NCBI GenBank assembly: GCA_031362565.1
Contig: JANLSU010000119.1
Location: 1 to 64,000 of the forward strand
DNA: 64,000 bases
DNA from: a bacterium
Lineage (GTDB): Bacteria; Krumholzibacteriota; Krumholzibacteriia; G020349025
Direction: 5' to 3'
Below the pieces are notes generated by a model that searched no databases, was not told the origin of the DNA, and worked only from the letters and a program-made list of their open reading frames with translations. The position numbers and the translations under genes were made by a program. Below are positions 562-53,651 of this stretch, piece after piece (positions within the stretch are counted from its first letter, which is position 1; each line of letters starts with the position of its first letter).

Positions 562-630
562 TGGCCGGGATGATTCCGCGACGGATGGCAGCCGCCGTAT
601 ACTTTGATGCACTCGCGATCGAGGAGACCC

Positions 631-2677: not shown

Positions 2678-3262
2678 TTACGGCGTGAGTTCCGGCAGGA
2701 TGAGCTGGCGGTCATGCCGTGACACGATACCGTCGTGGTTGAGGTCGCCGCGCGCCCGCATCCAGGCGAAAAAGGCCAGGTCGCTCGAATCCACATAACC
2801 GTCCGTGTTGAGGTCGGCGCGGCTCTTGGCAGCCGCGTAGGCGGCGAAGTCCGAGGAGTCGATGGTGCCGAATGGCGCCGCGAGATCCGGAACCGTACCG
2901 CCGAGGATTGCCTTGTAGACGCTAGCATCTTTGTTGTCGATGACTTGGTCCTGCGTGACGTCGGCGCGCATCAAGAAGGCGAAGGCTGCCAGATCCGATG
3001 AATCGACTTGTCCGTCACCCGTGAGATCGCCGGGGATCGGCTGAGTCGTCGGCAGCGCGCTCTTTTCGGGACCGCCAATTTCGACGGGCGGGCGCGGCAT
3101 CGGAGCCGGAATCGGCAAACGAGGCATCGACGTCGAGACGCTCGAGCTCTGGCGTTCCGGTCCGACGACCGAGTTGGTGCAGCCGGCGGCGAACGACAAC
3201 AAAACGGCCAGGCTTGCGAGCGTCACGAACGACAGCGTGCGGTGAGTTTGAGTGCGGAACAT
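2678..3262 (-). CDS. Dockerin-like / EF-hand repeat lipoprotein (paralog 1)
   Basis: ATG at 3262 with SD GGAGG; lipobox FAAGC; five Ca-binding-like loops (GDLTGDGQVDSSD, ADVTQDQVIDNKD, DLAAPFGTIDSSD, ADLNTDGYVDSSD, GDLNHDGIVSRHD). Confidence 0.85.
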   Translation of the reverse strand: MFRTQTHRTLSFVTLASLAVLLSFAAGCTNSVVGPERQSSSVSTSMPRLPIPAPMPRPPVEIGGPEKSALPTTQPIPGDLTGDGQVDSSDLAAFAFLMRADVTQDQVIDNKDASVYKAILGGTVPDLAAPFGTIDSSDFAAYAAAKSRADLNTDGYVDSSDLAFFAWMRARGDLNHDGIVSRHDRQLILPELTP

Positions 3263-3378
3263 TTTCGTTTCCTCCTGAAAGGCGGGCGAATCACCCGCTT
3301 TCTTTGGAGCAGGGGTTCGAGCGAGTCGGCCGGTGACTCCGGTGTTTCTCTCTCGAGCCGTTCTGCTCGGCTCACAGG

Positions 3379-3409
3379 AGGACTCGGACACAGCGCGGGA
3401 ACTTGGACA
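3379..3409 (-). promoter_or_regulatory. Putative ECF sigma promoter TGTCCA-N13-TGTCCGAGTCCT (copy 1)
   Basis: Exact motif 117 nt upstream of the paralog 1 ATG; four copies in the window with identical spacing. Confidence 0.7.
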
Positions 3410-3467
3410 CGCCGGCGCCAATTCTTTTTTTGCGATCCGTGGCGGCAACAGGGGGACCGAAAGCGGT

Positions 3468-3526
3468 TCGCCCCGAGGATTCCATCGCCGTGGGAGGAAA
3501 CGGCGGTCTGGAATCACTCGGGGCGA
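3468..3526. other. Long imperfect intergenic hairpin
   Basis: Stems TCGCCCCGAG/CTCGGGGCGA, GATTCCA/TGGAATC and CGCCGT/ACGGCG around a GGGAGGAA loop. Confidence 0.6.
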
Positions 3527-3571
3527 GAGGCGGACGACGATGATGGCGCGGTGTGTGATGAAACGCCGGCC

Positions 3572-3922
3572 TCAGCACTCTTCCCCACGGCATTCGGCGC
3601 AGAGATTGAAGCCGACGTGCTGCGTGGTCGGGCGCGAACGCCGCTGGCACCGGTCACAGCGTTTCGCGGTCGCGGCCTCGGTCTCGGTCACCGGCACGGC
3701 GGACTCCGTCACGGCCGCGGTGTTTTCTTCGCTGCTGCCCGAGAACATCCGCAGCAATTCGACGGCGACGCACCCGAAGCACAGTAGCGCGGTCACCGAT
3801 TCATCTTCCTGCTTGGCGTGCACGGGCCAGAGCAACCGGCTCGACATCGTTTCGCCGCATTCGACGCATTCGGCCTGGCACGCGAGATCGCGATTGGCGC
3901 GGTGTGAAAACCATTCGTACAT
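3572..3922 (-). CDS. Small Cys-rich protein with four CxxC pairs (putative double zinc ribbon)
   Basis: ATG at 3922 with SD GGAGG; CVEC, CFGC, CDRC, CAEC; preceded by the shared promoter motif. Confidence 0.7.
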   Translation of the reverse strand: MYEWFSHRANRDLACQAECVECGETMSSRLLWPVHAKQEDESVTALLCFGCVAVELLRMFSGSSEENTAAVTESAVPVTETEAATAKRCDRCQRRSRPTTQHVGFNLCAECRGEEC

Positions 3923-3996
3923 GTCCGTTCCTCCGTTTTGAATTCCTGTGGGGGTTCGCCTTCGGGTCCACTCGGACTGGGCTCGCCTCCTGTCAA

Positions 3997-4027
3997 AGGA
4001 CTCGGACACGCCCTCCAGACCTGGACA
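3997..4027 (-). promoter_or_regulatory. Putative ECF sigma promoter (copy 2)
   Basis: TGTCCA-ggtctggagggcg-TGTCCGAGTCCT, 75 nt upstream of the Zn-ribbon gene. Confidence 0.7.
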
Positions 4028-4056
4028 CGGATTCGAGCCGGGACCGCAAAAACGCC

Positions 4057-4086
4057 CGTGGCCCGCGGGGGAGGCCGCGGGCCACG
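4057..4086 (-). terminator. Hairpin downstream of paralog 2
   Basis: Perfect 12-bp stem CGTGGCCCGCGG/CCGCGGGCCACG, with a T-run shortly after on the minus strand. Confidence 0.6.
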
Positions 4087-4118
4087 AGCGAAGGCGTCTG
4101 GAAAAGCCCAAGGCGCCG

Positions 4119-4661
4119 TTACGGGGTGACCTCCGGGAAGATGAGCTGGCGGTCGTGCCGGGAGACGATGCCGTCGTGGTCGAGATCGCCACGCGCCCGC
4201 AACCAGGCGAAAAAGGCCAGGTCGCTCGAATCCACGTGGCCGTCCATCGTGAGGTCGGCGCGGCCCTTTGCCGCGGCGTAGGCGGCGAAGTCCGAGGCGT
4301 CGATGCTGCCCAGGGGCGCCGCGAGATCCGGAACCTGGCCGCCGCCGATCACCTGCGCGTCCGTGTTGTCGACGACGCCGTCGAGCGTGACGTCGGCGCG
4401 CATGATGAAGGCAAAGGCAGCGAGGTCCGACGCGTCGACCTGTCCGTCGCCCGTCAGGTCGCCGGGCACCGACGCGGTTTCGACCCCGCCCGCCTTCTGG
4501 TAGCCGTCGAACACTTCGGGAACCGACGGTTCGAGAGTGGTGCTCGTGCCGTGCTCCGGTCCGACGGCGGTGCTGTTACAGCCGGCGGCGAATGACAGTG
4601 TCAGGGCCAGGGTCGCGAGGGTCACGAACGCGGACGTGGGTTGGCTTGAATTGCGGAACAT
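4119..4661 (-). CDS. Dockerin-like / EF-hand repeat lipoprotein (paralog 2)
   Basis: ATG at 4661 with SD GGAGG; lipobox FAAGC; same five loops and C-terminal EVTP. Confidence 0.85.
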   Translation of the reverse strand: MFRNSSQPTSAFVTLATLALTLSFAAGCNSTAVGPEHGTSTTLEPSVPEVFDGYQKAGGVETASVPGDLTGDGQVDASDLAAFAFIMRADVTLDGVVDNTDAQVIGGGQVPDLAAPLGSIDASDFAAYAAAKGRADLTMDGHVDSSDLAFFAWLRARGDLDHDGIVSRHDRQLIFPEVTP

Positions 4662-4781
4662 TTCGGTTTCCTCCGGTGAGTCGGGCGTATCGCCTGAACT
4701 CCTGGGAGCAGGGGCTCGTGAGGATCTGGGATGGACCATCCAACCCTTCTTCTCGCGCGCCGTTCCTGCTCGGCTCACAGG

Positions 4782-4812
4782 AGGACTCGGACAGCGGGCG
4801 AAGACCTGGACA
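4782..4812 (-). promoter_or_regulatory. Putative ECF sigma promoter (copy 3)
   Basis: TGTCCA-ggtcttcgcccgc-TGTCCGAGTCCT, 121 nt upstream of paralog 2. Confidence 0.7.
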
Positions 4813-4941
4813 CGGAATAGGCCGCAGCCCCCGGAGGTACTTCACGCGGGCCCCCTTTTGGGGCCGCGGTGACTAGAGGTTGGAGCGCGCCGGGTGGTAC
4901 GCTCCACCGACACCCGTTTGGCACGCAGGAGGACTACGGTC

Positions 4942-5817
4942 ATGCTGGAGCAGGCACGTGTGAATCCAACCGCTGCAGCCGCGATGGACGGCGCCGTGCG
5001 GTCACAGATTCAAGACGTGTGCTCCCCATGCGGTGAGTTCGTAGCGGACGCTCTCGAATGCCGGCTTCTGCGGCGCGGCGGCGAATGGTTCCGGCAAGTC
5101 TTCGACGAAAAGCGCTGTCAGCCGTACCTTTTCCTCGAACGCTTCCTGCGCAAACGCGTCATCGCGCGCCTCGGAATCGAGGCGGCCGAGCATGTCCCCG
5201 ACATCGTTTCGGAAGTAGTGTTGGGACTCCTGCAAACGCCACCACGCGGCCTGCCGGCGAATCATGTCGTCGCCATGCGGCGCTTGCTCGCGGGACGCGC
5301 GCAACGGGCGCTCGTCGATTATTGGCGCGGGGTGAAAGGGCGCACTCGGTGTGGCAATTGCGGCTATCACCACGCCATGTCGGACGGAGTCCGTCGATGT
5401 GAGTATCCCGATGCGCGGCATCCGTGGTCCGGACGCGAAGTGCCGGCCGCGGTGGATCCACGCACCTTCGACCCGGCGTGCGAACGTTACTCGAGCCGGC
5501 GTGACAAGATCGCCGAGGCCACCGATGGGCGGGATCCGCTGGCCGCGGTCGCGAGCACGGATTCCACGCCCGATCAAGAAGCCGCCGCGGGCGAGCGTAC
5601 GACGATCCTGCTCGACTGCCTCGCGGCCGTGCAGCGCCAGGACCCGCGCGCCGGGCTCGTTCTGATGTTGTCGTACTTCAAGCACAAGACCAACGACGAG
5701 ATCGCCGGCGTGATCAAGAGCACGGTGCGAACGGTGACCCGCGCCAAGGAAAACGGGCTGACGATTCTGCGCCAGGAGTTCGAGTCCCGCGGGATCCAAT
5801 TCCAGGACCTCGCGTAG
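4942..5817 (+). CDS. Atypical ECF-like sigma-70 factor with a Cys-rich insertion
   Basis: Sigma2-like VPDIVSEVVLGL...AQRALVDYWR; sigma4-like LSYFKHKTNDEIAGVIKSTVRTV; CGNC...C...C lies between them. SD AGGAGG before ATG 4942. Confidence 0.7.
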   Translation: MLEQARVNPTAAAAMDGAVRSQIQDVCSPCGEFVADALECRLLRRGGEWFRQVFDEKRCQPYLFLERFLRKRVIARLGIEAAEHVPDIVSEVVLGLLQTPPRGLPANHVVAMRRLLAGRAQRALVDYWRGVKGRTRCGNCGYHHAMSDGVRRCEYPDARHPWSGREVPAAVDPRTFDPACERYSSRRDKIAEATDGRDPLAAVASTDSTPDQEAAAGERTTILLDCLAAVQRQDPRAGLVLMLSYFKHKTNDEIAGVIKSTVRTVTRAKENGLTILRQEFESRGIQFQDLA

Positions 5818-5838
5818 GCTGAATCGAGGTGTTGCGTC

Positions 5839-6612
5839 ATGGGCGATACAGAACGTTTTGAAAAATGGCTGCGTGACGCGGCCGGCAGCCCGTCCATGCA
5901 AGAGCGGCTGGCGCGCGCCGAGGCGCAGCCCGATTTGCCCGAGGAAGTGCTGGCGGACTACTACGCTGGCGAGTTGTCGCCCGCGGAGCAGCAGTTCGTC
6001 GAGCGGCGTATCGCGGTGTCGGAAAAGATGGGCCTGTTCCTTGCCGAGTTGGACGCGGACGTCACGGAAGCAACGCCTCCGGCACCGCCACGCCCGGTTT
6101 TTGCGACGTTCCTCGCCCGCGCGATGCATTTCGTCGAGAAGTTGTTGCCGTCACCGAACGCCCAGCGGCTCGCCGTTGGCATCGCCGGAATCGTCCTCGT
6201 GGTCGGGATCTCGAGCCGTGTCCTCGATCGCCCACCGGGTGGCCTGGGGCCCGAGTACGGTGTGGCGACGCCACGCGGTGCCGAGGACCTGCAAGAGCTG
6301 GCGCTCCCGGGCGGCGCGGTCGGACTCGTGGATCCGGACTGGCCGCTACACCAGCCGATCGGATCCGTTTCCAGCGTGCGCTGGTTCGCATGGGACCCGG
6401 CGCGCGGCGCGGTGACCTACCGGTTCGAACTCCGCGACCCCAACGGCGGCATCGTGTACACGAAAGACGGACTGCCAAAGAGCGTCCTGCGTCTCCCATG
6501 GACCGTGCGCCGCTCACTCGCTCACGAAGTCCTGTACGCCTGGATCGTGACGGCGGTCGACGCCGGCGGTACCCCTCGGCTCAGAGCCGTCGGCAAGTTC
6601 AGGATCGAGTGA
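5839..6612 (+). CDS. Putative membrane-anchored anti-sigma factor
   Basis: Degenerate zf-HC2-like segment EEVLADYYAGELSPAEQQFVERRI, one TM helix, extracytoplasmic beta-rich domain; directly follows the sigma gene. Confidence 0.65.
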   Translation: MGDTERFEKWLRDAAGSPSMQERLARAEAQPDLPEEVLADYYAGELSPAEQQFVERRIAVSEKMGLFLAELDADVTEATPPAPPRPVFATFLARAMHFVEKLLPSPNAQRLAVGIAGIVLVVGISSRVLDRPPGGLGPEYGVATPRGAEDLQELALPGGAVGLVDPDWPLHQPIGSVSSVRWFAWDPARGAVTYRFELRDPNGGIVYTKDGLPKSVLRLPWTVRRSLAHEVLYAWIVTAVDAGGTPRLRAVGKFRIE

Positions 6613-6620
6613 GGTCCGCG

Positions 6621-8024
6621 TCACTTCGATTGTCGCGCTCCAGCGAGCGCCAGCAAGATCTTCCCATAGCGCGCCCGCTCGGCCGCCGGCAGCAATGTGG
6701 GATCGAGTAAAGCCGCTGGCTTTTCAGCGCGCACCCAGGTACCGATCTTCAACTCGAACGCGAGGCGCAAGGCCGGATCCTTGGAGCCTGCGATCACGAC
6801 CAGATCGACGCGACCGTCATCGTCACGGTCGTAGAATGTCCGGTGCTCTGGTTCGGGCTGTAGCGCGAACTCGAAATCCCACTTGGCCGGATCCAGATTG
6901 AACTGCCCGGCGGCGACAGATGCCGAGTCGGGGCAGCTGTTCTCGTCCAGATCGCAGAGCACGCCGGTGACAAGGCCGTTTCCAAGCCCGAAAACCAACG
7001 TTTCCATCTTGCCGTTGCGGTCGCAATCGTGCAGTTCCCAGGCCGACGCTTCGGGCCAGGCATCCGGAATCTGCAGATCGGGATTCTTGGGCCGGTCGAC
7101 GAGAAACGACTTCAACTCACTGAGATCGATGTGATAGGAGAAGTGATCCAAGCCCGACGGCGGGATCGCGAACGTCACCGCAATCACTTCACCTCGCGCG
7201 TTCACGAGCGGGCCGCCGCTATCGCCCGGGTTGATTCCGCACGACGACAACACGACGCGGCGCTTCGGAATTTGCGCCATGAGGTGCGCGAGGCTCTGCG
7301 CGTCTTGCTGCGACGTCGAGCGCAGTGTCCACATGCGCACGTCGATGTGTTCGCTCGGCCAGTCCCCGACTCCGTCCACATCGCACTGGCGCATGGTCCA
7401 CAGGAGGCCCGCCGCCGGATGTCCAATCGCGATGCATTCGCTTCCCGGCACCGCCGCCGCCGGTGACAGTTTGAGCGCGGGGAGGGTCGCGAGGTCGGAG
7501 GGTTTGCGAACCAGCTTGAGGAGCGCGAGGTCGCGCTCCCGACTTGCCCGATAGACGATTGCCGGAACGGCATCGGGGAGCACATGCATGAGATGATCGT
7601 TCATCCGCCCCATGTTGATGTCGACGATGGGTGCGCCGGTTTGCATATCGGTCGCGGCGGCAGCGATGACGTGATGATTGGTGATGATCCAGCCGTCCGC
7701 GTCGATCAGGAATCCCGATCCATGACCCATCGGGGTGCGGACCACGACGACAGCCGGGGCCACCGTCGGGTAGAGATCGAGGCCGGCGCCGCGGCTCGCC
7801 TGGCGCGGTGCCGCTCCGGGTGCCCACGTCTCCGTCTCGGCGGCGCGCAGCAAGGCGCGCTCGAGCTGCGCCGGCGGTGCGCCGAGATTGGCGCTGGCAC
7901 CCAGTGGTGCGATGGAAGTGGGAAAGTCGACGGCAACCGCCGATGCGGTCCAGACGGGATTCGCGACAAGCCCCACGACAGGCGCCCATCGCAAACCCGC
8001 GGCGAGGCGGAAAACTTGGAACAT
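6621..8024 (-). CDS. Secreted trypsin-like (S1) serine protease
   Basis: GSGFLI, TNHHV, DLALLK and GDSGGP triad motifs; signal-peptide-like start at 8024 after GAAGGA; C-terminal DxDxxG loops. Confidence 0.9.
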   Translation of the reverse strand: MFQVFRLAAGLRWAPVVGLVANPVWTASAVAVDFPTSIAPLGASANLGAPPAQLERALLRAAETETWAPGAAPRQASRGAGLDLYPTVAPAVVVVRTPMGHGSGFLIDADGWIITNHHVIAAAATDMQTGAPIVDINMGRMNDHLMHVLPDAVPAIVYRASRERDLALLKLVRKPSDLATLPALKLSPAAAVPGSECIAIGHPAAGLLWTMRQCDVDGVGDWPSEHIDVRMWTLRSTSQQDAQSLAHLMAQIPKRRVVLSSCGINPGDSGGPLVNARGEVIAVTFAIPPSGLDHFSYHIDLSELKSFLVDRPKNPDLQIPDAWPEASAWELHDCDRNGKMETLVFGLGNGLVTGVLCDLDENSCPDSASVAAGQFNLDPAKWDFEFALQPEPEHRTFYDRDDDGRVDLVVIAGSKDPALRLAFELKIGTWVRAEKPAALLDPTLLPAAERARYGKILLALAGARQSK

Positions 8025-8233
8025 ACCAGTCCTTCCGAAGGAGGCCGTTCCCAGGCACGTGTCGATCAGGTCACGCATGAAGTGCCCACTTCCATAATGC
8101 CGCCGCGCCGCCGTTTCGCACGCGCGGGGTGCAGCCAGGCCAGGGTTCGGATTGCGCGAAGCGCCGAGTATAGAGCCCCGTGCCGGGCTCGCAAAGAGGC
8201 TTGCGACCCCCCGGAACGTGGCATAATCCCGCC

Positions 8234-8836
8234 ATGGACGAAACCGAAGATCGACCGAACCGCGCCTCGCGGGACGGTCACTCGACCGAGTCACTTCTGG
8301 CGCGAGCGCGGGCCGGGGACCGATCGGCGCTCGACCTGCTCATCGCGCGTCATTCGCCCCGGTTGCTGCACTGGGCCCATGGACGGCTGCCGTATTGGGC
8401 CCGCGATGTGATGGAAACCGACGACCTCGTGCAGATCACGCTCCTGAAAGCATTGAACCACGTACAGGACTTCGTGCCGCGTCACGAAGGGGCGTTTCTC
8501 GCGTATCTGCGTCAGATTCTGCTGAACGAAGTACGACAGGAGATCCGGCGGATCCGCCGCCGGCCCGAAAAGGACACTTTGCCGGCGGATTTCGCGGCCC
8601 GGGACCGGTCGCCGCTCGAAGATCTGGTCGGGTGTGAAACACTGGAGCGATACGAGGCAGCGCTCGCGAAATTGCCGGAGGCACAACGGGCTGCAGTAAT
8701 CTTGCGGCTCGAATTCGGGTTCACCCACGAACAGATTGCGGACGCTTGTGAGAGTCCGAGCGCGAATGCAGCGCGCATGATGGTGAAGCGTGGATTGCTT
8801 ACCCTTGCATCGGAGATGGAGCATGCCGGTGAATGA
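8234..8836 (+). CDS. ECF sigma factor, kinase-associated type
   Basis: LLARARAGD, ETDDLVQ, FLAYLRQILLN, LPEAQRAAVILR, EQIA, NAARMMVKRG. An extended -10-like TGGCATAAT lies 6 nt before the ATG, so the transcript may be leaderless. Confidence 0.92.
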   Translation: MDETEDRPNRASRDGHSTESLLARARAGDRSALDLLIARHSPRLLHWAHGRLPYWARDVMETDDLVQITLLKALNHVQDFVPRHEGAFLAYLRQILLNEVRQEIRRIRRRPEKDTLPADFAARDRSPLEDLVGCETLERYEAALAKLPEAQRAAVILRLEFGFTHEQIADACESPSANAARMMVKRGLLTLASEMEHAGE

Positions 8837-10535
8837 GGGCGACGAAGAGTTTCTCGATCGCGTCGCCGACGCGATCGTAGACGGCGTGCCGGTCGACTGG
8901 CCAGAGCCGGAGACTTCGCACCCCGATGTCGGCGCGCGGATTGCGCAACTGCGAGCCCTCGAAACAATCGCCCGTGCCCACCAAGAGTTCGCGGCGAAGG
9001 TTTTCGCCTCCGGCGACGGTGCAGCGACGCTACCGGCGGACCGTTCGACCCGGCTTTCTCTTTTCGAATGGGGCTCTCTCGAAGTACTCGAAAAGCTGGG
9101 CCAGGGATCGTTCGGCGAAGTGTATCGCGCCTACGATCCGGCGCTGGCGCGCGAGGTCGCACTCAAACTCCTGCGTATCGAGCCGGGGATGACCTCGGCG
9201 TCCGGGGATCATTTCCTAGCGGAGGCGCGGCGCTTGGCCCGCATTCGCCACGAGAACGTCGTGGTCATCCACGGTGCCGATGTCCACGACGGCCGCCCGG
9301 GAATGTGGATGGACCTGCTGCGTGGCAAGACACTCGCCGAGGAGGGGGTCGGCCGTGGTCCGCTCGGGGCGCAAGAAACCGCCGTCGTGGGCGTGGCTCT
9401 CTGCCGGGCGCTCGCCGCCCTGCACACGGTCAACCTCATGCACCGCGATCTGAAACCCGCGAACGTGATGCGTGAACAAGGTGGGCGTATCGTGCTGTTC
9501 GACTTCGGTTGCGCGATCGAAACGGATCTCTCGCCGCGGCAACTCGCAGCGATCGCCGGGACACCGGTGACGATGGCCCCAGAAGTTCTCTTGCAGACAG
9601 CGCCCTCGAGCGTTACCGCCGACATCTACTCCTTGGGAGTTCTCTTGTATTGGCTGGCAAGCGGCAAGTATCCGGTGGAAGCCTCTAGCTTGGACGGGTT
9701 CCTGGAATGCCATCGGCGCGGCGACTGGGTGCCGCTTCGGAGCCTGCGCCCCGATTTGCCGAGCGACTTCGTTCAGACGGTGGAACGCGCCAGCGCGCGC
9801 CAAGTCGACGAGCGATACCCGAGCATCGGCGACCTGGAACGCGACTTGATGCGTTCTGTTGGCGTGCTTGGGCAAACCGCTTCGATTCCGGAACCGGCAA
9901 CGGCGCCGTCGCAGGCCCTGGAGACACATTCGCGTGGTCATCGGCAGAGCCGCGCCGGCGTGCGGCTGGCGGTTGCGGCGGCACTGGTTGTGGCCGTGGT
10001 CTCCGCCTTCCTGGCGCGCAGCCGGTTCGCACCGCTGCGCGCCGAGGCCACGCTCTATCGCCAAACCGGCGAGAGTGCTGAAATCCTGGTGTCCGACAGT
10101 GCGATTCACGCCGGCGATCACCTCTTCGTGATGATCGAGGGTTCGAAGTCCCTGTGTGTCTACGTGCTCTATCAGGATGCGACTGGCAAGCATTTCATCT
10201 TGCAGTCGCCGGTCGACGCCAGCGTCTTGGCGGCCGGCGTCCCGCACCGCCTGCCGGCGGAGTCCGTATCCGGCGCGGCGCCGCGCTCCTGGATCGTGAC
10301 GAGCGGCGGCGGCACGGAAACCATCGCGGTCATCGCCGCGCCGCACCGGTTGCCGCAGTTGGAAACCGAGATCCAGGACTACGCGCGGCTCGACACCGGC
10401 CGGTCCACCGCGGTGCATTCGCGCGGGATCGGTGGGGTCGTGGAGGAAGTGCGGCGGCCGCTCATCGACGTCGCCCGTCGCTATGAGAACGATGCTTGGG
10501 TGTGGAGCCGGCAACTTCGCAATGATTCGCCGTGA
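8823..10535 (+). CDS. Membrane Hanks-type Ser/Thr kinase with a DUF4384-like ectodomain
   Basis: GQGSFGEVY, VALK, HRDLKPANV, DFG, APE, DIYSLG; TM helix; ectodomain GDHLFV...VYVLYQD...GTETIAVIA. Confidence 0.92.
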   Translation: MPVNEGDEEFLDRVADAIVDGVPVDWPEPETSHPDVGARIAQLRALETIARAHQEFAAKVFASGDGAATLPADRSTRLSLFEWGSLEVLEKLGQGSFGEVYRAYDPALAREVALKLLRIEPGMTSASGDHFLAEARRLARIRHENVVVIHGADVHDGRPGMWMDLLRGKTLAEEGVGRGPLGAQETAVVGVALCRALAALHTVNLMHRDLKPANVMREQGGRIVLFDFGCAIETDLSPRQLAAIAGTPVTMAPEVLLQTAPSSVTADIYSLGVLLYWLASGKYPVEASSLDGFLECHRRGDWVPLRSLRPDLPSDFVQTVERASARQVDERYPSIGDLERDLMRSVGVLGQTASIPEPATAPSQALETHSRGHRQSRAGVRLAVAAALVVAVVSAFLARSRFAPLRAEATLYRQTGESAEILVSDSAIHAGDHLFVMIEGSKSLCVYVLYQDATGKHFILQSPVDASVLAAGVPHRLPAESVSGAAPRSWIVTSGGGTETIAVIAAPHRLPQLETEIQDYARLDTGRSTAVHSRGIGGVVEEVRRPLIDVARRYENDAWVWSRQLRNDSP

Positions 10536-12874
10536 GCCTGCGGCGCATCGGAGGAGGACAATTCGTGGGGGCGCGGCACTTCATCGCGATCGCAGCCGTA
10601 GCGTGTATCGCGTCGCGCAGTTGCGCGGCGGAGACACGGCGCGCGGTGCTCGTCGGGGTCAATACCTATGAGCGCCCTGCGCCGGCCGGCGGTCCGGCAA
10701 CCGCGGGCGAACGGCTTCGCGACCGCGGCTGGACGAACCTCGAGGGCAGCCTGAACGACATCGATGCGATGCAAGCAATGCTCGTCGGCCGTTATGGCTT
10801 CGCGCCCCGCAACGTTGCGGTCCTGCGCGACACGGCAGCAACGCGGAGTGCGATCCTGTCGCTGCTGCGGACGCATCTGGTGAAAACGGCGCAGAAAGGC
10901 GACGTGTGCGTGTTTTATTACGCCGGACACGGATCGCAAGTCTACAACTCGAAGTCCGCCGAACCCGACCGATTCGACGAGACGATCGTCCCGGCCGACG
11001 CGAACCAGGCAGCGACGTCGAACCGCGATATTCGCGACAAGGAAATCGCCGCGCTTTTCAACGACATCTTGGACCGGGGCGCAACTCTCACGGCGTTCTT
11101 CGACTGCTGTCACAGCGGTTCGATTGCGCGCGGCATCGGCGGACCCGGAAGGCTCCGGTCATTGCGCCCCGATCTGAACGACATCGCGCTCGCAGATTCG
11201 GATCGCCGCCCCAAGCCCGCAGATCGTGGCGCCCTGGTGATTTCGGCAGCCCAAGAGACGCAGAAGGCGGCGGAAATCGTCGACCCCGAGGGGCGATGCC
11301 ACGGGGTCTTCAGTTTCATGCTCGAGAAGACACTGCGCTCGGCATCGACAGCCGAGTCCACCGAGCGCATCTTCGCGCGCGTGCGCGCCCTGGTCGCATC
11401 CTCGGAGGCCGGGCAGTCGCCGGACGTCGAAGGCTCGGCCGAGCGCCTCGCCGCGCCACTTTTCGGCGGCAAAGCAACGGCAGGCGACAAGATCGTCTTC
11501 GGCATCCAGGCCGTGGATGGCAATCGGTGCCGCGTGCAGGGTGGATACGCTCTCGGTTTGTTGCCGGGATGCGAGTTGGTACCGGTGCGTGACTCGAGCC
11601 GCGCCGTGCCGGCGACGCGCATTCGCATCGATGCAACCGAAGACCTGAACTACGCGCGCGCCTCCTGCATCGGGGGGGATTTGAGCACCGTACGACCGGG
11701 CGCCCTGTTCGAAGTCGAGCGTTGGGCCACGGGGCCCGGGGCGCGCCTGCGTGTTTGGATTCCACCCGTTCTCGAAGAGGCCGCCCTGAAGCGCGCGGCC
11801 GCCGAATTCGCGGCGTTACCCCGGTCGAGCAACAGCCGCCTCATCGCGGATCCGACCGAAACGACACCAACCCACGTCGTCGCGTGGACGGGCACCGACT
11901 GGATGTTGTCCGGACCGGACGGCAAGGCAGTGAAGATTGCCGCGTCCACGGCGCAACTTGCGGCGGCAGTGAAGAGCGGCACCAAGCCAGAACAGCCTGC
12001 GAGCGTTTTTGTCCACCTGCCACCCTGTCCATCCGTCGTGTCGCGCTTGCGAACCAGTGCCGAGGCCGGCCAGTCGCCGGTGCAAATCGTCGGCAAGGAG
12101 TCGGAGGCGCAGTATCTCCTTGTGGGCCGGTGGGCGAACGGGCAAATCGAGTATGCGTGGACGGCCCGTAACGCGACTCAGTTGGATCTGGCCAGTACGT
12201 CGAGCATGCCGGTTCGGACCAACTGGTGCGCCGTGCGCTCGACTTCGACACCGGACCAGGTCGACTTGTTGCAGGACTCGGCTCTGCGTCTTGCCAAGGT
12301 CAATGGTTGGATGCAACTCGACCCGCCACCGGAATCGCAACGATTCCCGTACCACCTCGTGTTGCGCAACGTGCAATCCAACCAGAAGGTCGCGAACGGG
12401 AACACGGTGCACGACGGCGACACGATCCAGCTCTCGCTGGAGGCATCACCGTCGGATCTGGAGTTCGGGGTCGCACGCCGCTATGTCTATGTCTTCGTGA
12501 TCGACAGTTTTGGCAGGAGTACGCTGATCGTCGGTGCGAACAATACCGGCAATTTTCTGCCGGCCGTCACTTTAGCCAGCGACAAGATTCCGCCGGAAAT
12601 CGCGCTGCATAGCGATGCCGGCAGCGATTTGCACGTCTCCGAACCATTCGGCGTCGATACGTATGTCTTGCTGACGACGAAGGAACCAATCAGCGACCCG
12701 AGTCGTGTTCTGGCCTTCGACGGCGTTCGCGCCGTGCCAGTGACGCGCGGCAGCAGCGAGGAATCGGCGCTCAGCCAGTTGCTGTCGGGGCTCAACGCGC
12801 CGACGCGCGGTGCAAGCCTGCCCACCCCCGTGACGTGGTCACTCGACCGGATCGCGCTGCGATCGATGAAGTGA
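10532..12874 (+). CDS. Secreted caspase-family (peptidase C14) protease with a DUF4384-like C-terminal domain
   Basis: RAVLVGVNTY; catalytic dyad YYAGHG and DCCHSG; signal-peptide-like N-terminus; GTGA overlap with the kinase gene. Confidence 0.9.
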   Translation: MSLRRIGGGQFVGARHFIAIAAVACIASRSCAAETRRAVLVGVNTYERPAPAGGPATAGERLRDRGWTNLEGSLNDIDAMQAMLVGRYGFAPRNVAVLRDTAATRSAILSLLRTHLVKTAQKGDVCVFYYAGHGSQVYNSKSAEPDRFDETIVPADANQAATSNRDIRDKEIAALFNDILDRGATLTAFFDCCHSGSIARGIGGPGRLRSLRPDLNDIALADSDRRPKPADRGALVISAAQETQKAAEIVDPEGRCHGVFSFMLEKTLRSASTAESTERIFARVRALVASSEAGQSPDVEGSAERLAAPLFGGKATAGDKIVFGIQAVDGNRCRVQGGYALGLLPGCELVPVRDSSRAVPATRIRIDATEDLNYARASCIGGDLSTVRPGALFEVERWATGPGARLRVWIPPVLEEAALKRAAAEFAALPRSSNSRLIADPTETTPTHVVAWTGTDWMLSGPDGKAVKIAASTAQLAAAVKSGTKPEQPASVFVHLPPCPSVVSRLRTSAEAGQSPVQIVGKESEAQYLLVGRWANGQIEYAWTARNATQLDLASTSSMPVRTNWCAVRSTSTPDQVDLLQDSALRLAKVNGWMQLDPPPESQRFPYHLVLRNVQSNQKVANGNTVHDGDTIQLSLEASPSDLEFGVARRYVYVFVIDSFGRSTLIVGANNTGNFLPAVTLASDKIPPEIALHSDAGSDLHVSEPFGVDTYVLLTTKEPISDPSRVLAFDGVRAVPVTRGSSEESALSQLLSGLNAPTRGASLPTPVTWSLDRIALRSMK

Positions 12875-12902
12875 GCCGCGGGCCCAGGCATGCCTTTGGT
12901 AG

Positions 12903-15900
12903 TCAACGTTCCGACTGGGAAACGATCTCTGCGACGAGCCGGGCAGCGAGTGCCAGCGGATCGTCGATGCGCCCCTCGATACTCGTTGCAGCGATCCGTC
13001 GCTTGTCGCGCGTGAGAATGAGCAAGACTCGCACGATTGTCCGGTTGATCGTGTAGGTTCCGCTCGCGCGGATTGCACCGGGGAGGTCGTCGGCGTCCAG
13101 GCAGACAATCCGCCCCGCCGATTGGCCGCGTGCAATCGTATAGCTTTGCTCCCGCAGCAGTTGAAGCACCGCACTCGACAGATCCAGCGAATCGAAGCCT
13201 TCTCGACCGTCGAGGAAACTCGGTCGCAAGATCATCGGCTTTTCCTGCGCCAGCGGAATCTGTGCCTTGTCCGTTGATGTGAACTGGCCGATGTCAAAAC
13301 TTGCACCGTTCGGCGCGGAGATGATTGGCCGTTGAATGCCACCGATGTTTTTCGCGAGAGAAGGCACACGGTCCGTGGCGTATTGGAAGAGCCGACTCAC
13401 GTCGGCGAACTCGCCGTCGCGTAGCGCCGCTCCCCGAAGGCCCTCGAGTAGCGCGTAGGTCAACAACCCTTGGCCGTACTGCGTCGCTTCATAGCTTGCG
13501 GCGTCGGCTGCGCTCCCCATGAGGACATGAAACCCGGTGCGATCCTTGAGGCGCTCAATGGCGCGGATCTGTCCAGAGGAGACGCTACGGGGCTCGACCA
13601 GCTTGTCGGCTGCGGCGCCCGCGGCACACGTGTCGAGAATAAGGACCTGTTTCAACGCCGGAATCGCTTTCACCCAACTTGTCAACTCTTCGCTCGTGAC
13701 CGCGTTTTGCTGGCGCACCGCCGGGTCAGTGAGATCCGCGCTTCGTGCTTCTTGTGTGAGGTACGCGTACTCGCCGGCTGCCGCAGGAAGCGCCACGCCG
13801 TGCCCAGCGAGGTAGACGACCAGCACGTCCGCCGGCCGTGCCTGACGAGCCGCTGCAAAGACAGTTGCAAAATTTGCCTTCGTCGGCGGGGTGGCGCCCT
13901 CCCCACTACTACTCGACAACAGGGTCAAGTGCACTTTGGACGCACCGAACAACCGCATGGCACCGAGTTGGAGCGCACGCGCTACGTCCGAGGCATCCTT
14001 GGCTGCATACCGCAAGCGGAGCGCTGGAGACGCATATTCTGAAATCCCGCCGACGATGACGTAGAGTTCCGGCACGGTCTTCGATTGTCCATCATCAGGC
14101 GGTGTCCACTGCACCGCGACACCGCGGCTCGAGAGATATCCCTCCGCATTCGAGGCCAACACTTCGACGCGATTCGGCTCTCCAGCAATAAACGGTGCGT
14201 CTGCCAGGTCGAGTTGCAGCGATGCTGTGTGCTGAGTGGGCGAAATCACCGTCTGCCCACGTGCATCCGCCACGACTTCCTTCCCGTTCACAAGCACGCG
14301 CACCTTGCCAATGCCCCCTCCTCGGTCAGTGAGCGTGATCGTTGCCTTCGTGCTCCCGGTGGGGGGCGGGGTGACGGCCACCAACGGATAGAGCGCAACA
14401 TTCTTGAAGGCGCGGACGTCTCGTAGCGGTTCCTTGCTGTAGCCGAGAACCCTCGCCAGCAGTCCCGGCTCGAAGTAACGCTCCTTCAGTTGGTACAGGG
14501 CGATGGGTTCGTTCTCCACGACCCATGACAACCCGTCGATATCACCCGCCGCAGCGGAATCGTAACGTCCATCGGGATCAACTACCGCCCAAGTTCCATC
14601 CTGAAATGAAAGCAGTCGCACCATTTCTCTGCCGCCTGCGGCATCAAGGATCCGGATAGAACCTTCCTCGAGCGCAGCCGCTATAAATCGTCCGTTCGCG
14701 AGATAGGCCACGGCATGCACGTGGGAGTCGACGTCAACCGTCCATTTTTGTTTTGCAGTCGCGACGTCCCATGCAGAGACGATTCCGTCCATTCCTCCAC
14801 TTACAACCTCGCGCCCGTCGGGGGAGAACATCGCCGCGCACACTTGACCCGCATGCGCGCCCGGAAAGGAACCGACTCTCTGCGTCTCCGTCGAAGGGTC
14901 AGGCGGTCCAAGCAGTTGCAGCTCTCCAAAGGCAGCACCCTCCTTCCAGTCTGCCACGCTCCACAAACGGAGGCCACCAGCCCAGTCACCGAACAAGAGC
15001 TCACTTCCGTCAGGCGAAAATGACATCGTTGCAAAGACGGAAGTACCAGGCCATGGCGGGTAATCAAGGCCCTGGGTGTGGAGCGTTCGAAGCTCGGTGC
15101 CGGTCTCCGCATCCCACAGGCTAACGGTACTGTCGCCGGCCGTTGCAACCAAGTGAGTGTCGGCGGACAGGGCGACGTTCTTGATTGGCTCGCGGTGACG
15201 ATAGAGTGCTACAAGTTCGAGCTCGCCATCAATGTTCCACAGCCTGCAACGACCGTCCGGCGTTCCAACCAGTAGCCGCTTCGCATTCGCCGAAAGGCAC
15301 AGTGGTGGATGTGCACCAGCACTGAGACGATTGGAGACTCCAGCGGGCGCGCCTGTACCAAATTTCGTGATGAGTGCTCCGTGGGCGTTCCAGATTCGGA
15401 TCGTGTCGTCGCGTGCCATTGTTGCCGCGAATTGACCGTCTGGCGACACAACGCCTGTACCGCGAAGCTCCGCGTGTGGACTTCCGTCAGACCACAGCGT
15501 GACGTTCCCATTGCCCGCGAGGAAGCTAGCCGATTCTTGCGACGTGGAGAGCGCGTTCACGGGCGAGACTTTGCCTGCAAGGATTCGCTCTGTCATTCCG
15601 GTGACGACATTCGACAGCGTGGCGGTCCGAAACTGTCCCAAGACAAGAAATGTGCCGTCCGCGGAAAGTGCGAGCCCTGGGGGTGGTCCACGTAGTTGCG
15701 TCAACCACAAGGGTTGGGCAGTGCCGTAGCGACGCAGTTCGACGCCCGTGTCGATGTCCCAACAACTTGCGGTGCCATCCCAGTATCCCGCGAAGACCTC
15801 TTTCCCGTTAGGTGAAAACGCCACTGAAGTCACGACCTCGCCGCCACTCGGGTAGGTTCGCTCCCTCTTCCCCGACGCCGGATTCCAAAGTTCGAGCATG

Positions 15901-16742
15901 CTGGCGGCCGGGCGGTACAACCTGCCTGGCGTCATCGTGAACTTTTCGATCTGCCCACCACCCAGGACAACGTGCTTTCCGTCGCGCGAAACCGCGACAC
16001 CAAAGATAGGAGATGCGGCGGCAAGTCTCCGCACGACACACCCTTTGGCGAGGTCCCAGATCGCAGCCGTGCCATCGAGGCCCGCATAAAGGCAATGTTT
16101 CCCATCCGGAAAAACTGCGAGCACCTGACGCATCAACCGAAAATTGACGCCAAGATCGGTGGCGACTAGATTACCGACGCGGGTCGCGTTGTCGTGCATC
16201 GTGCGAAGGCGCGATCCAGTTCTCACATCCCACACGACGAGTGTTGCGTCGGAGCTCTCGGTGATCAACCGGCCCCCATCCGGCGAAAAGACTGCGGCCT
16301 TGGTGCTTGGGATGATTTGCAGCTTCCCTCGCCGGGTCACATTTGTAAGGACATGAGTCAGAATGTTTTTGGAGAGATCCCAAATCTCCGTGCGGCGGTC
16401 CCCTGCGATCGCGCAGTGGACACCATCGGGGGACACCGCCACGACCGTTCCGCGCGAGAGAGCGCGCAGCTGGGTCCCAGTCGACGCTTCCCAAAGAACG
16501 ACTTCGCCACCGCTGTCTGCGGTGAGAACCCAACGATCGTCAACCGACGTGGCAATCGATACAACTTGTTCGGTATTGCCGACTTGGGGAATGAGTCGGA
16601 CTTCATCCTCGTTGTTGACCTGGCTGGCGCCCGCGAATTGTCCGCAGAGTATGGAGCCCGCACACGCAAGGACAGAGATCACCCGGATCGCATTAACGCG
16701 CCTTGGGCGATCGAGCAACGCGAATGAAATGGGTGGGCTCAT
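12903..16742 (-). CDS. WD40-repeat protein with a C-terminal caspase (C14) domain
   Basis: Many AFSPDG...WD repeats; catalytic dyad YLAGHG and DTCAAG. Start uncertain (16742 or 16826). Confidence 0.88.
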   Translation of the reverse strand: MSPPISFALLDRPRRVNAIRVISVLACAGSILCGQFAGASQVNNEDEVRLIPQVGNTEQVVSIATSVDDRWVLTADSGGEVVLWEASTGTQLRALSRGTVVAVSPDGVHCAIAGDRRTEIWDLSKNILTHVLTNVTRRGKLQIIPSTKAAVFSPDGGRLITESSDATLVVWDVRTGSRLRTMHDNATRVGNLVATDLGVNFRLMRQVLAVFPDGKHCLYAGLDGTAAIWDLAKGCVVRRLAAASPIFGVAVSRDGKHVVLGGGQIEKFTMTPGRLYRPAASMLELWNPASGKRERTYPSGGEVVTSVAFSPNGKEVFAGYWDGTASCWDIDTGVELRRYGTAQPLWLTQLRGPPPGLALSADGTFLVLGQFRTATLSNVVTGMTERILAGKVSPVNALSTSQESASFLAGNGNVTLWSDGSPHAELRGTGVVSPDGQFAATMARDDTIRIWNAHGALITKFGTGAPAGVSNRLSAGAHPPLCLSANAKRLLVGTPDGRCRLWNIDGELELVALYRHREPIKNVALSADTHLVATAGDSTVSLWDAETGTELRTLHTQGLDYPPWPGTSVFATMSFSPDGSELLFGDWAGGLRLWSVADWKEGAAFGELQLLGPPDPSTETQRVGSFPGAHAGQVCAAMFSPDGREVVSGGMDGIVSAWDVATAKQKWTVDVDSHVHAVAYLANGRFIAAALEEGSIRILDAAGGREMVRLLSFQDGTWAVVDPDGRYDSAAAGDIDGLSWVVENEPIALYQLKERYFEPGLLARVLGYSKEPLRDVRAFKNVALYPLVAVTPPPTGSTKATITLTDRGGGIGKVRVLVNGKEVVADARGQTVISPTQHTASLQLDLADAPFIAGEPNRVEVLASNAEGYLSSRGVAVQWTPPDDGQSKTVPELYVIVGGISEYASPALRLRYAAKDASDVARALQLGAMRLFGASKVHLTLLSSSSGEGATPPTKANFATVFAAARQARPADVLVVYLAGHGVALPAAAGEYAYLTQEARSADLTDPAVRQQNAVTSEELTSWVKAIPALKQVLILDTCAAGAAADKLVEPRSVSSGQIRAIERLKDRTGFHVLMGSAADAASYEATQYGQGLLTYALLEGLRGAALRDGEFADVSRLFQYATDRVPSLAKNIGGIQRPIISAPNGASFDIGQFTSTDKAQIPLAQEKPMILRPSFLDGREGFDSLDLSSAVLQLLREQSYTIARGQSAGRIVCLDADDLPGAIRASGTYTINRTIVRVLLILTRDKRRIAATSIEGRIDDPLALAARLVAEIVSQSER

Positions 16743-16849
16743 CTTTTGGTAGGCCGCCTCCCCGAGTCGAACGATAACCAGCGGTAGGACACTAGCAGAA
16801 ACAGCACGAATGCTGTGCAAGCGCATGCCATGGCCTGCAGAGATGCGGG

Positions 16850-16884
16850 CGGCGGTTCGCGGCGAGGGGAGCCGCGAACCGCCG
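16850..16884 (-). terminator. Hairpin downstream of paralog 3
   Basis: Perfect 14-bp stem CGGCGGTTCGCGGC/GCCGCGAACCGCCG, nearly identical to the hairpin at 2587-2619. Confidence 0.55.
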
Positions 16885-16945
16885 TGGGTCGAAGAGTCTG
16901 GCAGGTTTTTGTGGGACGGTCGTTTCGCGATGCGTTCGGTTTCGA

Positions 16946-17500
16946 CTACGGCGTCACCTCCGGCGCGATGATGTGAAGGTCGCGGCGCGACACGATGCCG
17001 TCGCCGTCCAGATCGCCGCGGTGGCGCATCCAGGTGAGGCATGCGAGGTCACTCGCGTCCACGCGGCCGTCTTGAGTCAGGTCCGCCCGGGCGCGGGCCC
17101 CGGCAAGAGCGGCGTAGTCCGAGGCATCGATGATTCCCTGAGGCTGGGCCAGATCCGGAACCCCGCCGCTCATCAGCATCGCGAGCGCTACTTCGTCGAA
17201 TCCGTCGACCATCTGGTCGTTATTGATGTCGGCGCGCATCAAGAATGCGAACGCTGCCAAGTCGGACGAGTCGACCTGTCCGTCGCCCGTGATGTCGCCG
17301 GTGACCGTCGGGGTCACATTCACCTGGAAGCCTGCCTTCTCCAAACCCTGCAGCTCGACCGGAACCCGGCGTCCGATGGGTTCGCTGGCGCGAAGCTCCG
17401 GACCCGAGACGCTGTTCGAGCAACCCGAGGCGAACATCAAGGCGAAGCCGGAAACGGTCAGGGTGACGGTGGCGATGAGGGTGCGATTGGTACGGAACAT
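16946..17500 (-). CDS. Dockerin-like / EF-hand repeat lipoprotein (paralog 3)
   Basis: Lipobox FASGC; GDITGDGQVDSSDLAAF and four further loops; ends EVTP. Confidence 0.85.
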   Translation of the reverse strand: MFRTNRTLIATVTLTVSGFALMFASGCSNSVSGPELRASEPIGRRVPVELQGLEKAGFQVNVTPTVTGDITGDGQVDSSDLAAFAFLMRADINNDQMVDGFDEVALAMLMSGGVPDLAQPQGIIDASDYAALAGARARADLTQDGRVDASDLACLTWMRHRGDLDGDGIVSRRDLHIIAPEVTP

Positions 17501-17615
17501 GTGCGTTTTCCTCCTGAGCCGGGCGTGGGGCGCGGCTCCTTTTGCAGCGACTCGGGGGCTTCGAATCGGACTCTCCAGTTCTCGGCCCGGGAGCCTGTGC
17601 TGCTTGGCTCAAAGG

Positions 17616-17646
17616 AGGACTCGGACACGGCCCAGAAACATGGACA
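17616..17646 (-). promoter_or_regulatory. Putative ECF sigma promoter (copy 4)
   Basis: TGTCCA-tgtttctgggccg-TGTCCGAGTCCT, 116 nt upstream of paralog 3. Confidence 0.7.
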
Positions 17647-53605: not shown

Positions 53606-53651
53606 CGTCCTCTTCGGTTCGCGGCGCGGAGCTCCTCTCCTTGGGCACCTT

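Follow-up and report, generated by a model that had tools for sequence, protein, structure and literature searches.

A region of about 15 kb (positions 2678-17646) in a bacterium of the phylum Krumholzibacteriota (assembly GCA_031362565.1, contig JANLSU010000119.1) encodes two sigma factors of, or related to, the extracytoplasmic function (ECF) type together with proteases, membrane transducers and a set of small motif-bearing genes, and is read here, at a rough probability of 0.55, as two independent envelope-signalling modules plus one stand-alone gene. The first module consists of a divergent sigma (sigX), its candidate anti-sigma (antisigX), a trypsin-like protease and four small genes preceded by a private promoter-like motif; the second is an operon of an ECF sigma (ECF2), a Hanks-type Ser/Thr kinase and a caspase-family protease; the stand-alone gene encodes a WD40-caspase protein. 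This reading is preferred because the whole set does not co-occur elsewhere while each module holds together, and it draws on gene content, motif uniqueness, synteny, paralogy and a predicted sigma/anti-sigma interface.

The window, that is, the whole stretch of 64 kb that was analysed, lies within a 97-kb contig of a 5.4-Mb genome with 65% guanine plus cytosine (GC). Genes were called from an open reading frame listing, GC by codon position and Pfam and NCBIfam scans, and export was judged from N-terminal hydrophobic segments by eye and with a Kyte-Doolittle scan. The phylum sample comprised 208 species representatives, of one class throughout, in which the genome described here is G000. The initial annotation of this DNA had listed three extracytoplasmic proteases (trypsin-like, caspase with a DUF4384-like domain, and WD40 with caspase), two transmembrane (TM) transducers (anti-sigma and Hanks kinase), two ECF sigmas and four small genes with one motif at both ends of the cluster, and this inventory was borne out. 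The proteases have Pfam matches and catalytic motifs, their extracytoplasmic location being read from hydrophobic N-termini only; each transducer has one TM segment; ECF2 scores above its family cut-offs and sigX, which is divergent, below; and the four motif matches of the genome all lie here.

A private promoter-like motif and its four small genes

The genes and sites of the motif set are the following:

2678-3262, minus strand: dock1, dockerin lipoprotein with two dockerin-type Ca-binding modules, 194 amino acids (aa) (Pfam Dockerin_1, 36.4 bits)
3380-3409, minus strand: motif copy 1, TGTCCAAGT-N10-TGTCCGAGTCC, candidate ECF-type promoter of dock1
3572-3922, minus strand: CysSmall, 116 aa, four CxxC pairs (from the translation)
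3998-4027, minus strand: motif copy 2, 5' of CysSmall
4053-4090, minus strand: terminator-like hairpin, 16-bp stem followed by a T run, at the 3' end of the dock2 transcript
4119-4661, minus strand: dock2, dockerin lipoprotein, 180 aa (Dockerin_1, 31.2 bits)
4783-4812, minus strand: motif copy 3, 5' of dock2, inside the divergent dock2/sigX gap
16946-17500, minus strand: dock3, dockerin lipoprotein, 184 aa (Dockerin_1, 37.4 bits)
17617-17646, minus strand: motif copy 4, 5' of dock3

Alignment of the regions upstream of dock1, CysSmall, dock2 and dock3 revealed a common 30-nt element, C-R-TGTCCANGT-N10-TGTCCGAGTCCT, with each copy located 5' of one small gene and with the three left-hand genes and dock3 flanking the cluster. 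Searched as TGTCCANGT-N10/11-GTCCGAGTCC, the motif matches the window 4 times against 0.00 expected from 100 shuffles, and the whole 5.4-Mb genome returns the same 4 matches at 0, 1 or 2 mismatches and no others. Within the motif TGTCCA and CGAGTCC are spaced by 17 nt, as are the -35 and -10 elements of ECF-type promoters. No sigma70-like promoter was predicted between motif copy and gene for any of the four genes; across the 15.8-kb region promoter-like sites number 3 against 2.1 expected, none of them at the motif-to-gene positions. With up to 4 mismatches allowed, the search of this locus found no motif copy 5' of sigX, of ECF2 or of the protease genes.

The dock2 transcript would end at its hairpin just ahead of the CysSmall copy of the motif, and the 3' ends of dock1 and dock3 carry related GC-rich hairpins with a CCGCGAACCGCCG core (2600-2622 and 16866-16888). 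On the grounds of the single private promoter type, the dock2 terminator and these related hairpins, dock1, CysSmall, dock2 and dock3 look like separate transcription units. A further hairpin, GAGCCG...CGGCTC, lies just past the motif in the 5' leaders of the dockerin genes (3340-3392, 4743-4795 and 17577-17629 on the minus strand, and positions 707-759 of the metagenome locus L031); compensatory changes in 2 of its 9 pairs, among 4 sequences, support it weakly.

The initial annotation called this set a dockerin-lipoprotein regulon, which describes three of the genes, the fourth being the CxxC-rich CysSmall. All three Dockerin_1 scores exceed the Pfam cut-off of 22.9 bits and the duplicated loop of type I dockerins is present; each protein is built of two dockerin modules with four D-x-[DN]-x-D-G motifs that resemble Ca loops, and its hydrophobic N-terminal stretch closes with A-[AS]-G-C, which in dock1 is a lipobox-like A-A-G-C. 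Dock1 is 63% identical to dock2 and 54% to dock3. The family is about as rare as that of sigX, with 25 clusters, nearly all metagenomic, against 6. A dockerin alignment run against the genome-contig collection found 17 loci with short dockerin-repeat matches only, none of them with sigX or ECF2; the best (35% identity) is in a metagenome-assembled genome (MAG) of Phycisphaeraceae, and one (L050) holds a weak kinase match. Cohesin-like matches occur at four places in the genome, three of them at or above the cut-off (C55:124584-124988, C29:4891-5184 and C14:68010-68369, given as contig and positions), and these domains could be partners of the dockerin lipoproteins. One cohesin-like domain is located about 7 kb from an ECF-kinase-CHAT cassette on contig C14. 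CysSmall has no Pfam or NCBIfam match, lacks a signal sequence and is without paralogues in this genome; its Atlas neighbours are unnamed clusters, the nearest named one being of zinc-ribbon type at 0.89.

The genes that border the cluster offer a different regulator for this motif:

604-1785, plus strand: LytS-type histidine kinase (Pfam)
1782-2558, plus strand: LytTR response regulator (Pfam)
17789-18223, plus strand: Dps-like gene

LytTR regulators bind paired direct repeats with a spacing of about 21 nt. Both halves of the motif contain GTCCRNGT, and the LytS/LytTR pair immediately adjoins dock1, so the element could be read as direct repeats GTCC-R-N-GT bound by LytTR, with the four genes as output of this two-gene system. 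The repeat cores are, however, 19 nt apart, no sigma70-like core promoter was found 3' of them, and beyond these four copies the motif is missing from a genome with at least seven LytTR paralogues. Moreover, the motif travels with sigX on metagenome contigs, though these are too short to reveal a LytTR gene. A LytTR-bound motif is thus very doubtful, and the pair, one of at least seven paralogous LytS/LytTR pairs detected by tblastn, is probably merely a neighbour. Synteny of the flanks with five family relatives was uninformative, as the LytTR and CBM96 proteins recovered were 38-51% identical and scattered.

A cysteine-rich sigma, its candidate anti-sigma and a conserved protease

The preferred reading assigns the motif to sigX, which is encoded divergently from dock2 and followed by two genes of module 1:

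4942-5817, plus strand: sigX, divergent ECF-like sigma, 291 aa (TIGR02937, 28.4 bits, below cut-off)
5839-6612, plus strand: antisigX, single-pass membrane anti-sigma candidate, 257 aa (TM scan and predicted complex)
6621-8024, minus strand: trypsin-like serine protease, S1 family with an HtrA-like core (Trypsin_2, 76.4 bits)

As far as its sequence tells, sigX is a very divergent and rare ECF-like sigma with two Cys4 clusters. The TIGR02937 match, over residues 92-295, compares with a cut-off of 42.9 bits and there is no Pfam match at E<=0.01. Five close homologues were found among 5.8 billion proteins, and a profile search of 1.84 billion representatives extended the family, at E<=0.001, to 34 proteins. 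Across 16 full-length members, whose identity falls to about 20%, eight cysteines show no or hardly any variation: C27, C30, C40 and C59 form the N-terminal cluster, and C137, C140, C153 and C180 the second one, within an insert of about 70 aa between sigma2 and sigma4. These clusters probably hold metal and may add a second input, metal or redox. Distant members carry ED..QE, and Sigma70_r4_2, Sigma70_ECF and Sigma70_r2 are matched by 9, 5 and 3 of the 16, respectively. A structural model from the 16-sequence alignment reached a pLDDT of 72.9; its best Foldseek rows are almost all sigma factors, with ECF sigmas leading, and its sigma4 part superposes on 3hug with a TM-score of 0.81-0.88, the other parts fitting less well.

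The family is sparse in sequenced relatives. Thirty relatives contained no full-length sigX, just 1 weak match to sigma4, and no relative was found in the genome-contig collection; when the 16-member profile was run against the 208 phylum genomes, the matches listed outside G000 were to the sigma4 part of ordinary ECFs only. No description of a sigX-like sigma was found in full-text literature searches, which covered few subscription journals. Upstream of sigX the motif is absent and a conserved CTGGAA-N17-TGnTAGGCT is present instead (window 4815-4941, plus strand; metagenome loci L027, L028, L029 and L031), which looks like an extended -10 housekeeping promoter.

AntisigX has a cytoplasmic N-terminus, one TM-like segment (residues 108-126) and an outer domain of about 120 aa. 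A predicted complex of sigX with antisigX residues 1-100 gave an ipSAE of 0.81, while the best control of 3 scored 0.00, with a contact agreement of at least 78% between runs and a partner pLDDT of at least 77; in a benchmark, 116 of 157 solved complexes came up to this mark, as did 2 of 215 mismatched pairs. In the model, antisigX contacts both sigma2 (residues 60-126) and sigma4 (216-290), the binding mode of class I anti-sigmas, and the prediction supports binding, making antisigX a plausible anti-sigma of sigX. The zinc-binding anti-sigma (ZAS) motif H-x3-C-x2-C is absent from it (zf-HC2, E = 0.24), residues 1-95 contain neither Cys nor His, and Pfam and NCBIfam scans found no known sensor domain.

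The trypsin-like gene is convergent with antisigX. Its product shows HHV, DLALL and GDSGGP, corresponding to a His-Asp-Ser triad; the C-terminal PDZ domain of HtrA/DegS was not found by Pfam, and NCBIfam HtrA/DegS models score 27-53 bits, far under their cut-offs of more than 400. Its N-terminus is the least clear export signal among the proteases.

Synteny of this module was examined in five metagenome loci (L027-L031) of at most 3.1 kb each. AntisigX lies 3' of sigX in all four loci that extend past sigX, and a convergent trypsin-like homologue with 66% identity is present in L028, the sole locus that reaches that far. L031 and L029 each have a dockerin gene that points away from sigX and is preceded by the motif, with 1 and 4 mismatches respectively, and in L027 the first half of the motif stands at the contig edge. 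In addition, a dockerin-family member is located on a contig of 3457 bp, and a sigX homologue with 85% identity is recorded on a contig that is also 3457 bp long. Another contig, of 7772 bp, has two dockerin genes.

From these data we infer the following course for module 1. A housekeeping-type promoter would drive sigX, and antisigX would keep the sigma at the membrane. On an envelope signal the co-conserved trypsin-like protease, by analogy a candidate site-1 protease, would cut the outer part of antisigX, and an RseP-type protease, of which the genome encodes two (family M50), would follow. Freed sigX would then read TGTCCA-N17-CGAGTCC promoters, the output being the three tandem-dockerin lipoproteins, which would bind Ca, and the cytoplasmic protein rich in CxxC.

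An ECF-kinase-caspase operon

Module 2 is composed of three genes:

8234-8836, plus strand: ECF2, canonical ECF sigma of a kinase-linked family (Sigma70_r2, r4_2 and TIGR02937)
8823-10535, plus strand: Hanks-type Ser/Thr kinase with an outer DUF4384-like domain (sequence motifs and Pfam)
10532-12874, plus strand: C14 caspase-family protease with a C-terminal DUF4384-like domain (Peptidase_C14, 79.9 bits)

ECF2 and the kinase gene overlap by 14 nt and the kinase and caspase genes by 4 nt, so the three form one operon, with translational coupling. ECF2 belongs with the ECF (group 4) sigmas, matching Sigma70_r2 at 42.8 bits (cut-off 24), r4_2 at 35.0 (25.7) and TIGR02937 at 66 (42.9). The kinase has HRDLKPAN and DFG motifs in a cytoplasmic kinase domain and one strong TM segment (residues 380-398). 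The caspase, far above the Peptidase_C14 cut-off of 21.4 bits, contains AGHG and DCCHSG, which provide the His-Cys dyad.

Four further pairs of an ECF2-like sigma and a kinase were found in the genome by tblastn, giving five ECF2-like sigmas in all. Three of the four pairs were scanned whole, the Pfam comparison omitting the pair on contig C35. Two of the paralogous kinases match DUF4384 and are followed by a gene for an exported TPR-CHAT (caspase-fold) protein (window 50639-56145, minus strand, and C14:54895-60719); the third, on C89, has neither. Next after the cassette at 50639-56145 come a gene for a radical-SAM protein and one of ThsB-TIR-like type. In the C35 pair (C35:1400-3310) the kinase frame is broken across several frames, which makes it either a pseudogene or the product of faulty assembly.

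ECF2-like sigmas occur in 34 of the 208 phylum genomes, G000 included. Twenty loci from 13 genomes, namely the highest-listed of 58 matches outside G000 after removal of those on short contigs, were examined further. A kinase lies directly 3' of the sigma in 19 of the 20, a TPR-CHAT protein is the third gene in 7 (one contig stops after the kinase), and a C14 caspase, sigX, a dockerin or a trypsin-like gene is present in none. Among ten scanned kinases the outer domain is DUF4384 in 4, FG-GAP in 4 and TPR in 1, with no match in 1. Since a TPR-CHAT gene stands third elsewhere and the C14 caspase-DUF4384 gene stands third here, the C14 protein fills the TPR-CHAT slot, and the ECF2 operon is, to judge from domain content and gene order, a C14 variant of a recurring ECF-kinase-TPR-CHAT cassette. 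Full-text searches, again with few subscription journals covered, returned no description of an ECF/kinase/exported-caspase operon.

The kinases with an FG-GAP ectodomain are those of L086, L087, L089 and L090. The genes 3' of them encode large proteins with C-termini of type IX secretion system (T9SS) type or FlgD-Ig-like (L087 and L089), DUF11-repeat proteins (L090) and a protein with no family match (L086); these loci may represent another output class of the ECF2-like sigma family.

Near-full-length relatives of the caspase-DUF4384 protein occur in 3 of the 207 other phylum genomes (38-42% identity), where the neighbours are housekeeping genes, encoding tRNA synthetase, ribosomal and Band-7 proteins. 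Within 10 kb on either side of these three there is no sigma or Ser/Thr kinase, one locus having a hybrid histidine kinase, and in six 20-kb loci around caspase relatives tblastn matched no other protein of the window. In L022 and L023 (genomes G098 and G099) the gene next to the caspase-DUF4384 relative encodes a second caspase, which has a PPC pre-peptidase domain, and a Bax1-inhibitor-like membrane protein is encoded nearby.

With respect to activation, the sigma2.2 region of ECF2 (residues 61-69) reads E-T-D-D-L-V-Q, and [DE]-T-x-D-L-V-Q with an invariant Thr was found in all 24 aligned sequences (ECF2 and 23 others), nearly all of which keep the acidic residues at both positions. An S-P-L-[ED] stretch in the linker is common to many ECF2-like sigmas. 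The invariant Thr and the linker Ser are candidate phosphosites. Close to their starts, ECF2-like genes have TAnAAT-like boxes and lack an ECF motif common to them all, which fits post-translational activation. By this scheme ECF2 would be activated by its own membrane kinase, and the exported caspase would act on, or partner with, the outer DUF4384 domain of that kinase.

It is conceivable that ECF2, once activated by its kinase, reads the dockerin motif and that the targets of sigX lie elsewhere. ECF2 otherwise has no identified regulon and dock3 lies on its side of the cluster; kinase-linked ECFs are often not autoregulated (PMC7826278), and the kinase-linked group ECF217s1 has a dockerin context (Casas-Pastor 2021). 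On the metagenome contigs, however, the motif-bearing dockerin genes are directly beside sigX. A loosened form of the motif was not enriched around 23 ECF2-like loci, 20 from relatives and 3 from this genome (9 matches in 0.224 Mb against 58 per Mb genome-wide; another form, 2 against 4.3 per Mb), and the genome has one motif set for five ECF2-like sigmas. Reading of the motif by ECF2 is for these reasons considered improbable.

The WD40-caspase gene

Between module 2 and dock3 lies a further large gene:

12903-16742 (alternative start 16826), minus strand: WD40 beta-propellers and a C14 caspase domain (Peptidase_C14, 42.9 bits)

The caspase domain is above the cut-off of 21.4 bits, AGHG and DTCAAG provide the His-Cys dyad, and the N-terminus has a signal-like hydrophobic segment. 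Over the caspase and C-terminal part there are more than 1000 relatives with 53-65% identity, which are proteins of about 1200 aa from MAGs of Acidobacteriota, Planctomycetota and Gammaproteobacteria, and the 207 other phylum genomes gave just 5 weak matches (29-30% identity). The local GC is 0.60 compared with about 0.65 elsewhere. The gene belongs to a widespread stand-alone family and is, most simply, a separately acquired passenger here.

One circuit or two modules

The initial annotation had joined all of these parts into one circuit, in which a cascade of the exported trypsin-like, caspase-DUF4384 and WD40-caspase proteases would activate the kinase or destroy the anti-sigma, the dockerin lipoproteins being the output of both sigmas. 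All parts are indeed adjacent, the motif genes flank the cluster (dock1, CysSmall and dock2 on the left, dock3 on the right), and ECF217s1 offers a precedent for kinase-linked sigmas with Dockerin_1 neighbours (Casas-Pastor 2021). The initial annotation had itself proposed that absence of co-occurrence in other genomes would count against such a circuit; in that comparison the whole set was not found together, and what held together was each module. The three near-full-length caspase-DUF4384 relatives have no nearby sigma or Ser/Thr kinase, none of the 20 ECF2-like loci contains sigX, a dockerin, a trypsin-like gene, a C14 caspase or the motif, the loosened motif is not enriched at such loci, and the WD40-caspase gene has lower GC and its relatives in other phyla. 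The single cascade from protease through kinase or anti-sigma to dockerins is therefore unsupported and, as an account of the region, unlikely. Of the links it contained, those within modules survive, namely the protease syntenic with sigX and antisigX and the ECF2-kinase-caspase operon; nothing was found that would tie the dockerin regulon to the kinase or to either caspase.

An elaborated form of the one-system account would have the caspase and the trypsin-like protease report on a Ca-dependent surface layer of dockerin lipoproteins to the DUF4384 kinase and the anti-sigma, and through them to the two sigmas, with sigX, as a new kind of ECF-like sigma, sensing metal or redox through its Cys4 sites and being tuned by the CxxC-rich product of the regulon. 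This we hold to be improbable.

Several points weigh against the two-module reading. The motif is assigned to sigX by adjacency only, and since the region upstream of sigX lacks it, the usual argument from ECF autoregulation is unavailable. In 2 of the 5 metagenome loci (L028 and L030) there is neither motif nor dockerin gene beside sigX, and the upstream sequence is a different one. Dock3, with a perfect motif, is located 12 kb from sigX and past module 2, a position that two modules leave unexplained: either a dockerin array was split by insertion or the modules are linked. As to sigX itself, no Foldseek match of its model reached E<=0.001, and a first AlphaFold model built from 6 sequences was discarded at a pLDDT of 51. 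The predicted complex may simply echo sigma/anti-sigma pairs of solved structure, and the alignments behind it were shallow (6 and 5 rows). In module 2, ECF2 retains the acidic sigma2.2 residues that the kinase-dependent ECF43 sigmas have lost. DUF4384 (PF14326) scores 23.3 bits in the kinase and 18.1 in the caspase, below the Pfam cut-off of 27, and BLASTP found no similarity between the two regions (E = 18); related or paralogous kinases reach up to 46.9 bits, and the caspase orthologue of G003, at 29.0 bits, is above the cut-off.

The claim of a full circuit from input to output loses value because its parts do not travel together. What is new here are two variations on known themes: an ECF-like sigma that combines a Cys4-Cys4 arrangement with a dockerin regulon of its own, and the C14 form of the cassette of ECF, kinase and caspase-fold protein. 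With eight conserved cysteines and a tiny regulon marked by a motif, sigX is a compact system for studying the effect that insertion of a metal site has on a sigma factor. The ECF-kinase-caspase operon would give bacterial relatives of caspases a defined signalling role and DUF4384 a function, and the cassette of ECF, kinase and exported caspase-fold protein recurs in this genome and phylum.

Comparison with known systems

Module 1 resembles the sigmaE-RseA-DegS-RseP system of E. coli in having an ECF-type sigma, a single-pass anti-sigma that, in the predicted complex, grips both sigma2 and sigma4, an S1 serine protease encoded alongside, and M50 site-2 protease genes in the genome. It differs in the strong divergence of sigX and its two Cys4 clusters, in a protease that lacks PDZ, in an antisigX without a zinc motif or known sensor domain, and in a sigX gene that has no copy of its presumed target motif upstream. 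Cysteine-rich ECFs are represented by CorE/CorE2 (ECF238) and ECF287/288, in which conserved cysteines are thought, and for CorE2 shown, to sense metal (PMC7826278). SigX shares with these groups conserved cysteines inside the sigma. In them, as that source describes, the Cys-rich part is a short C-terminal tail and an anti-sigma is absent; in sigX one Cys4 cluster is N-terminal, the other lies in an insert in the linker, and a candidate anti-sigma is encoded alongside.

Kinase-linked ECFs are established for groups ECF43, 59-62, 217, 267 and 283 (PMC7826278), ECF43 including the pairs EcfP/PknT of Vibrio parahaemolyticus and EcfK/PknS of Xanthomonas citri (PMC13147305, PMC7826278). As in these pairs, a transmembrane Hanks kinase directly follows ECF2 in an operon without an anti-sigma. 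ECF43 sigmas are recognised by loss of the acidic DxxD of sigma2.2 with a phospho-acceptor Thr in place (PMC13147305); ECF2, in contrast, keeps these acidic residues and has a conserved Thr at the second position instead. The third gene of module 2, an exported caspase-fold protease, is likewise unlike the ECF43 pairs, the accessible parts of PMC13147305 and PMC7826278 making no mention of one for this group. The Planctomycetes group ECF217s1 is kinase-linked and has Dockerin_1 proteins in its conserved context (Casas-Pastor 2021 supplement, PMC7826278), a likeness to the present locus; it belongs to another phylum and, in the part of the supplement accessible, is listed without a caspase, a promoter motif or a second sigma.

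Caspase-fold proteins have been connected with ECF sigmas before. The supplement of Casas-Pastor 2021 (PMC7826278) reports that ECF54 has CHAT-TPR proteins nearby and that anti-sigmas of ECF25 contain DUF4384. In DdvS/DdvA of Myxococcus xanthus the anti-sigma contains a periplasmic TPR-CHAT module, and a caspase-fold cut has been proposed as the first proteolytic step (PMC11506125); both systems tie a periplasmic caspase-fold module to ECF sigma signalling, but in DdvA, as covered by that source, CHAT is part of the anti-sigma and there is no kinase, whereas here the exported caspase is a separate protein and a kinase its membrane partner. Craspase, of type III-E CRISPR, brings together Csx29 (TPR-CHAT), Csx30, Csx31 and RpoE, and some Csx30 substrates end in DUF4384, a domain often fused to proteases (10.1101/2022.08.17.504292). 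Like module 2 it couples a caspase-fold protease to an ECF sigma with the involvement of DUF4384; by the same account it is cytoplasmic, triggered by RNA and devoid of a kinase, unlike the protease and DUF4384 described here, which are predicted to lie outside the cytoplasm. The DUF4384 ends of Csx30 and the fusions of this domain to proteases support the general idea of a caspase acting on DUF4384.

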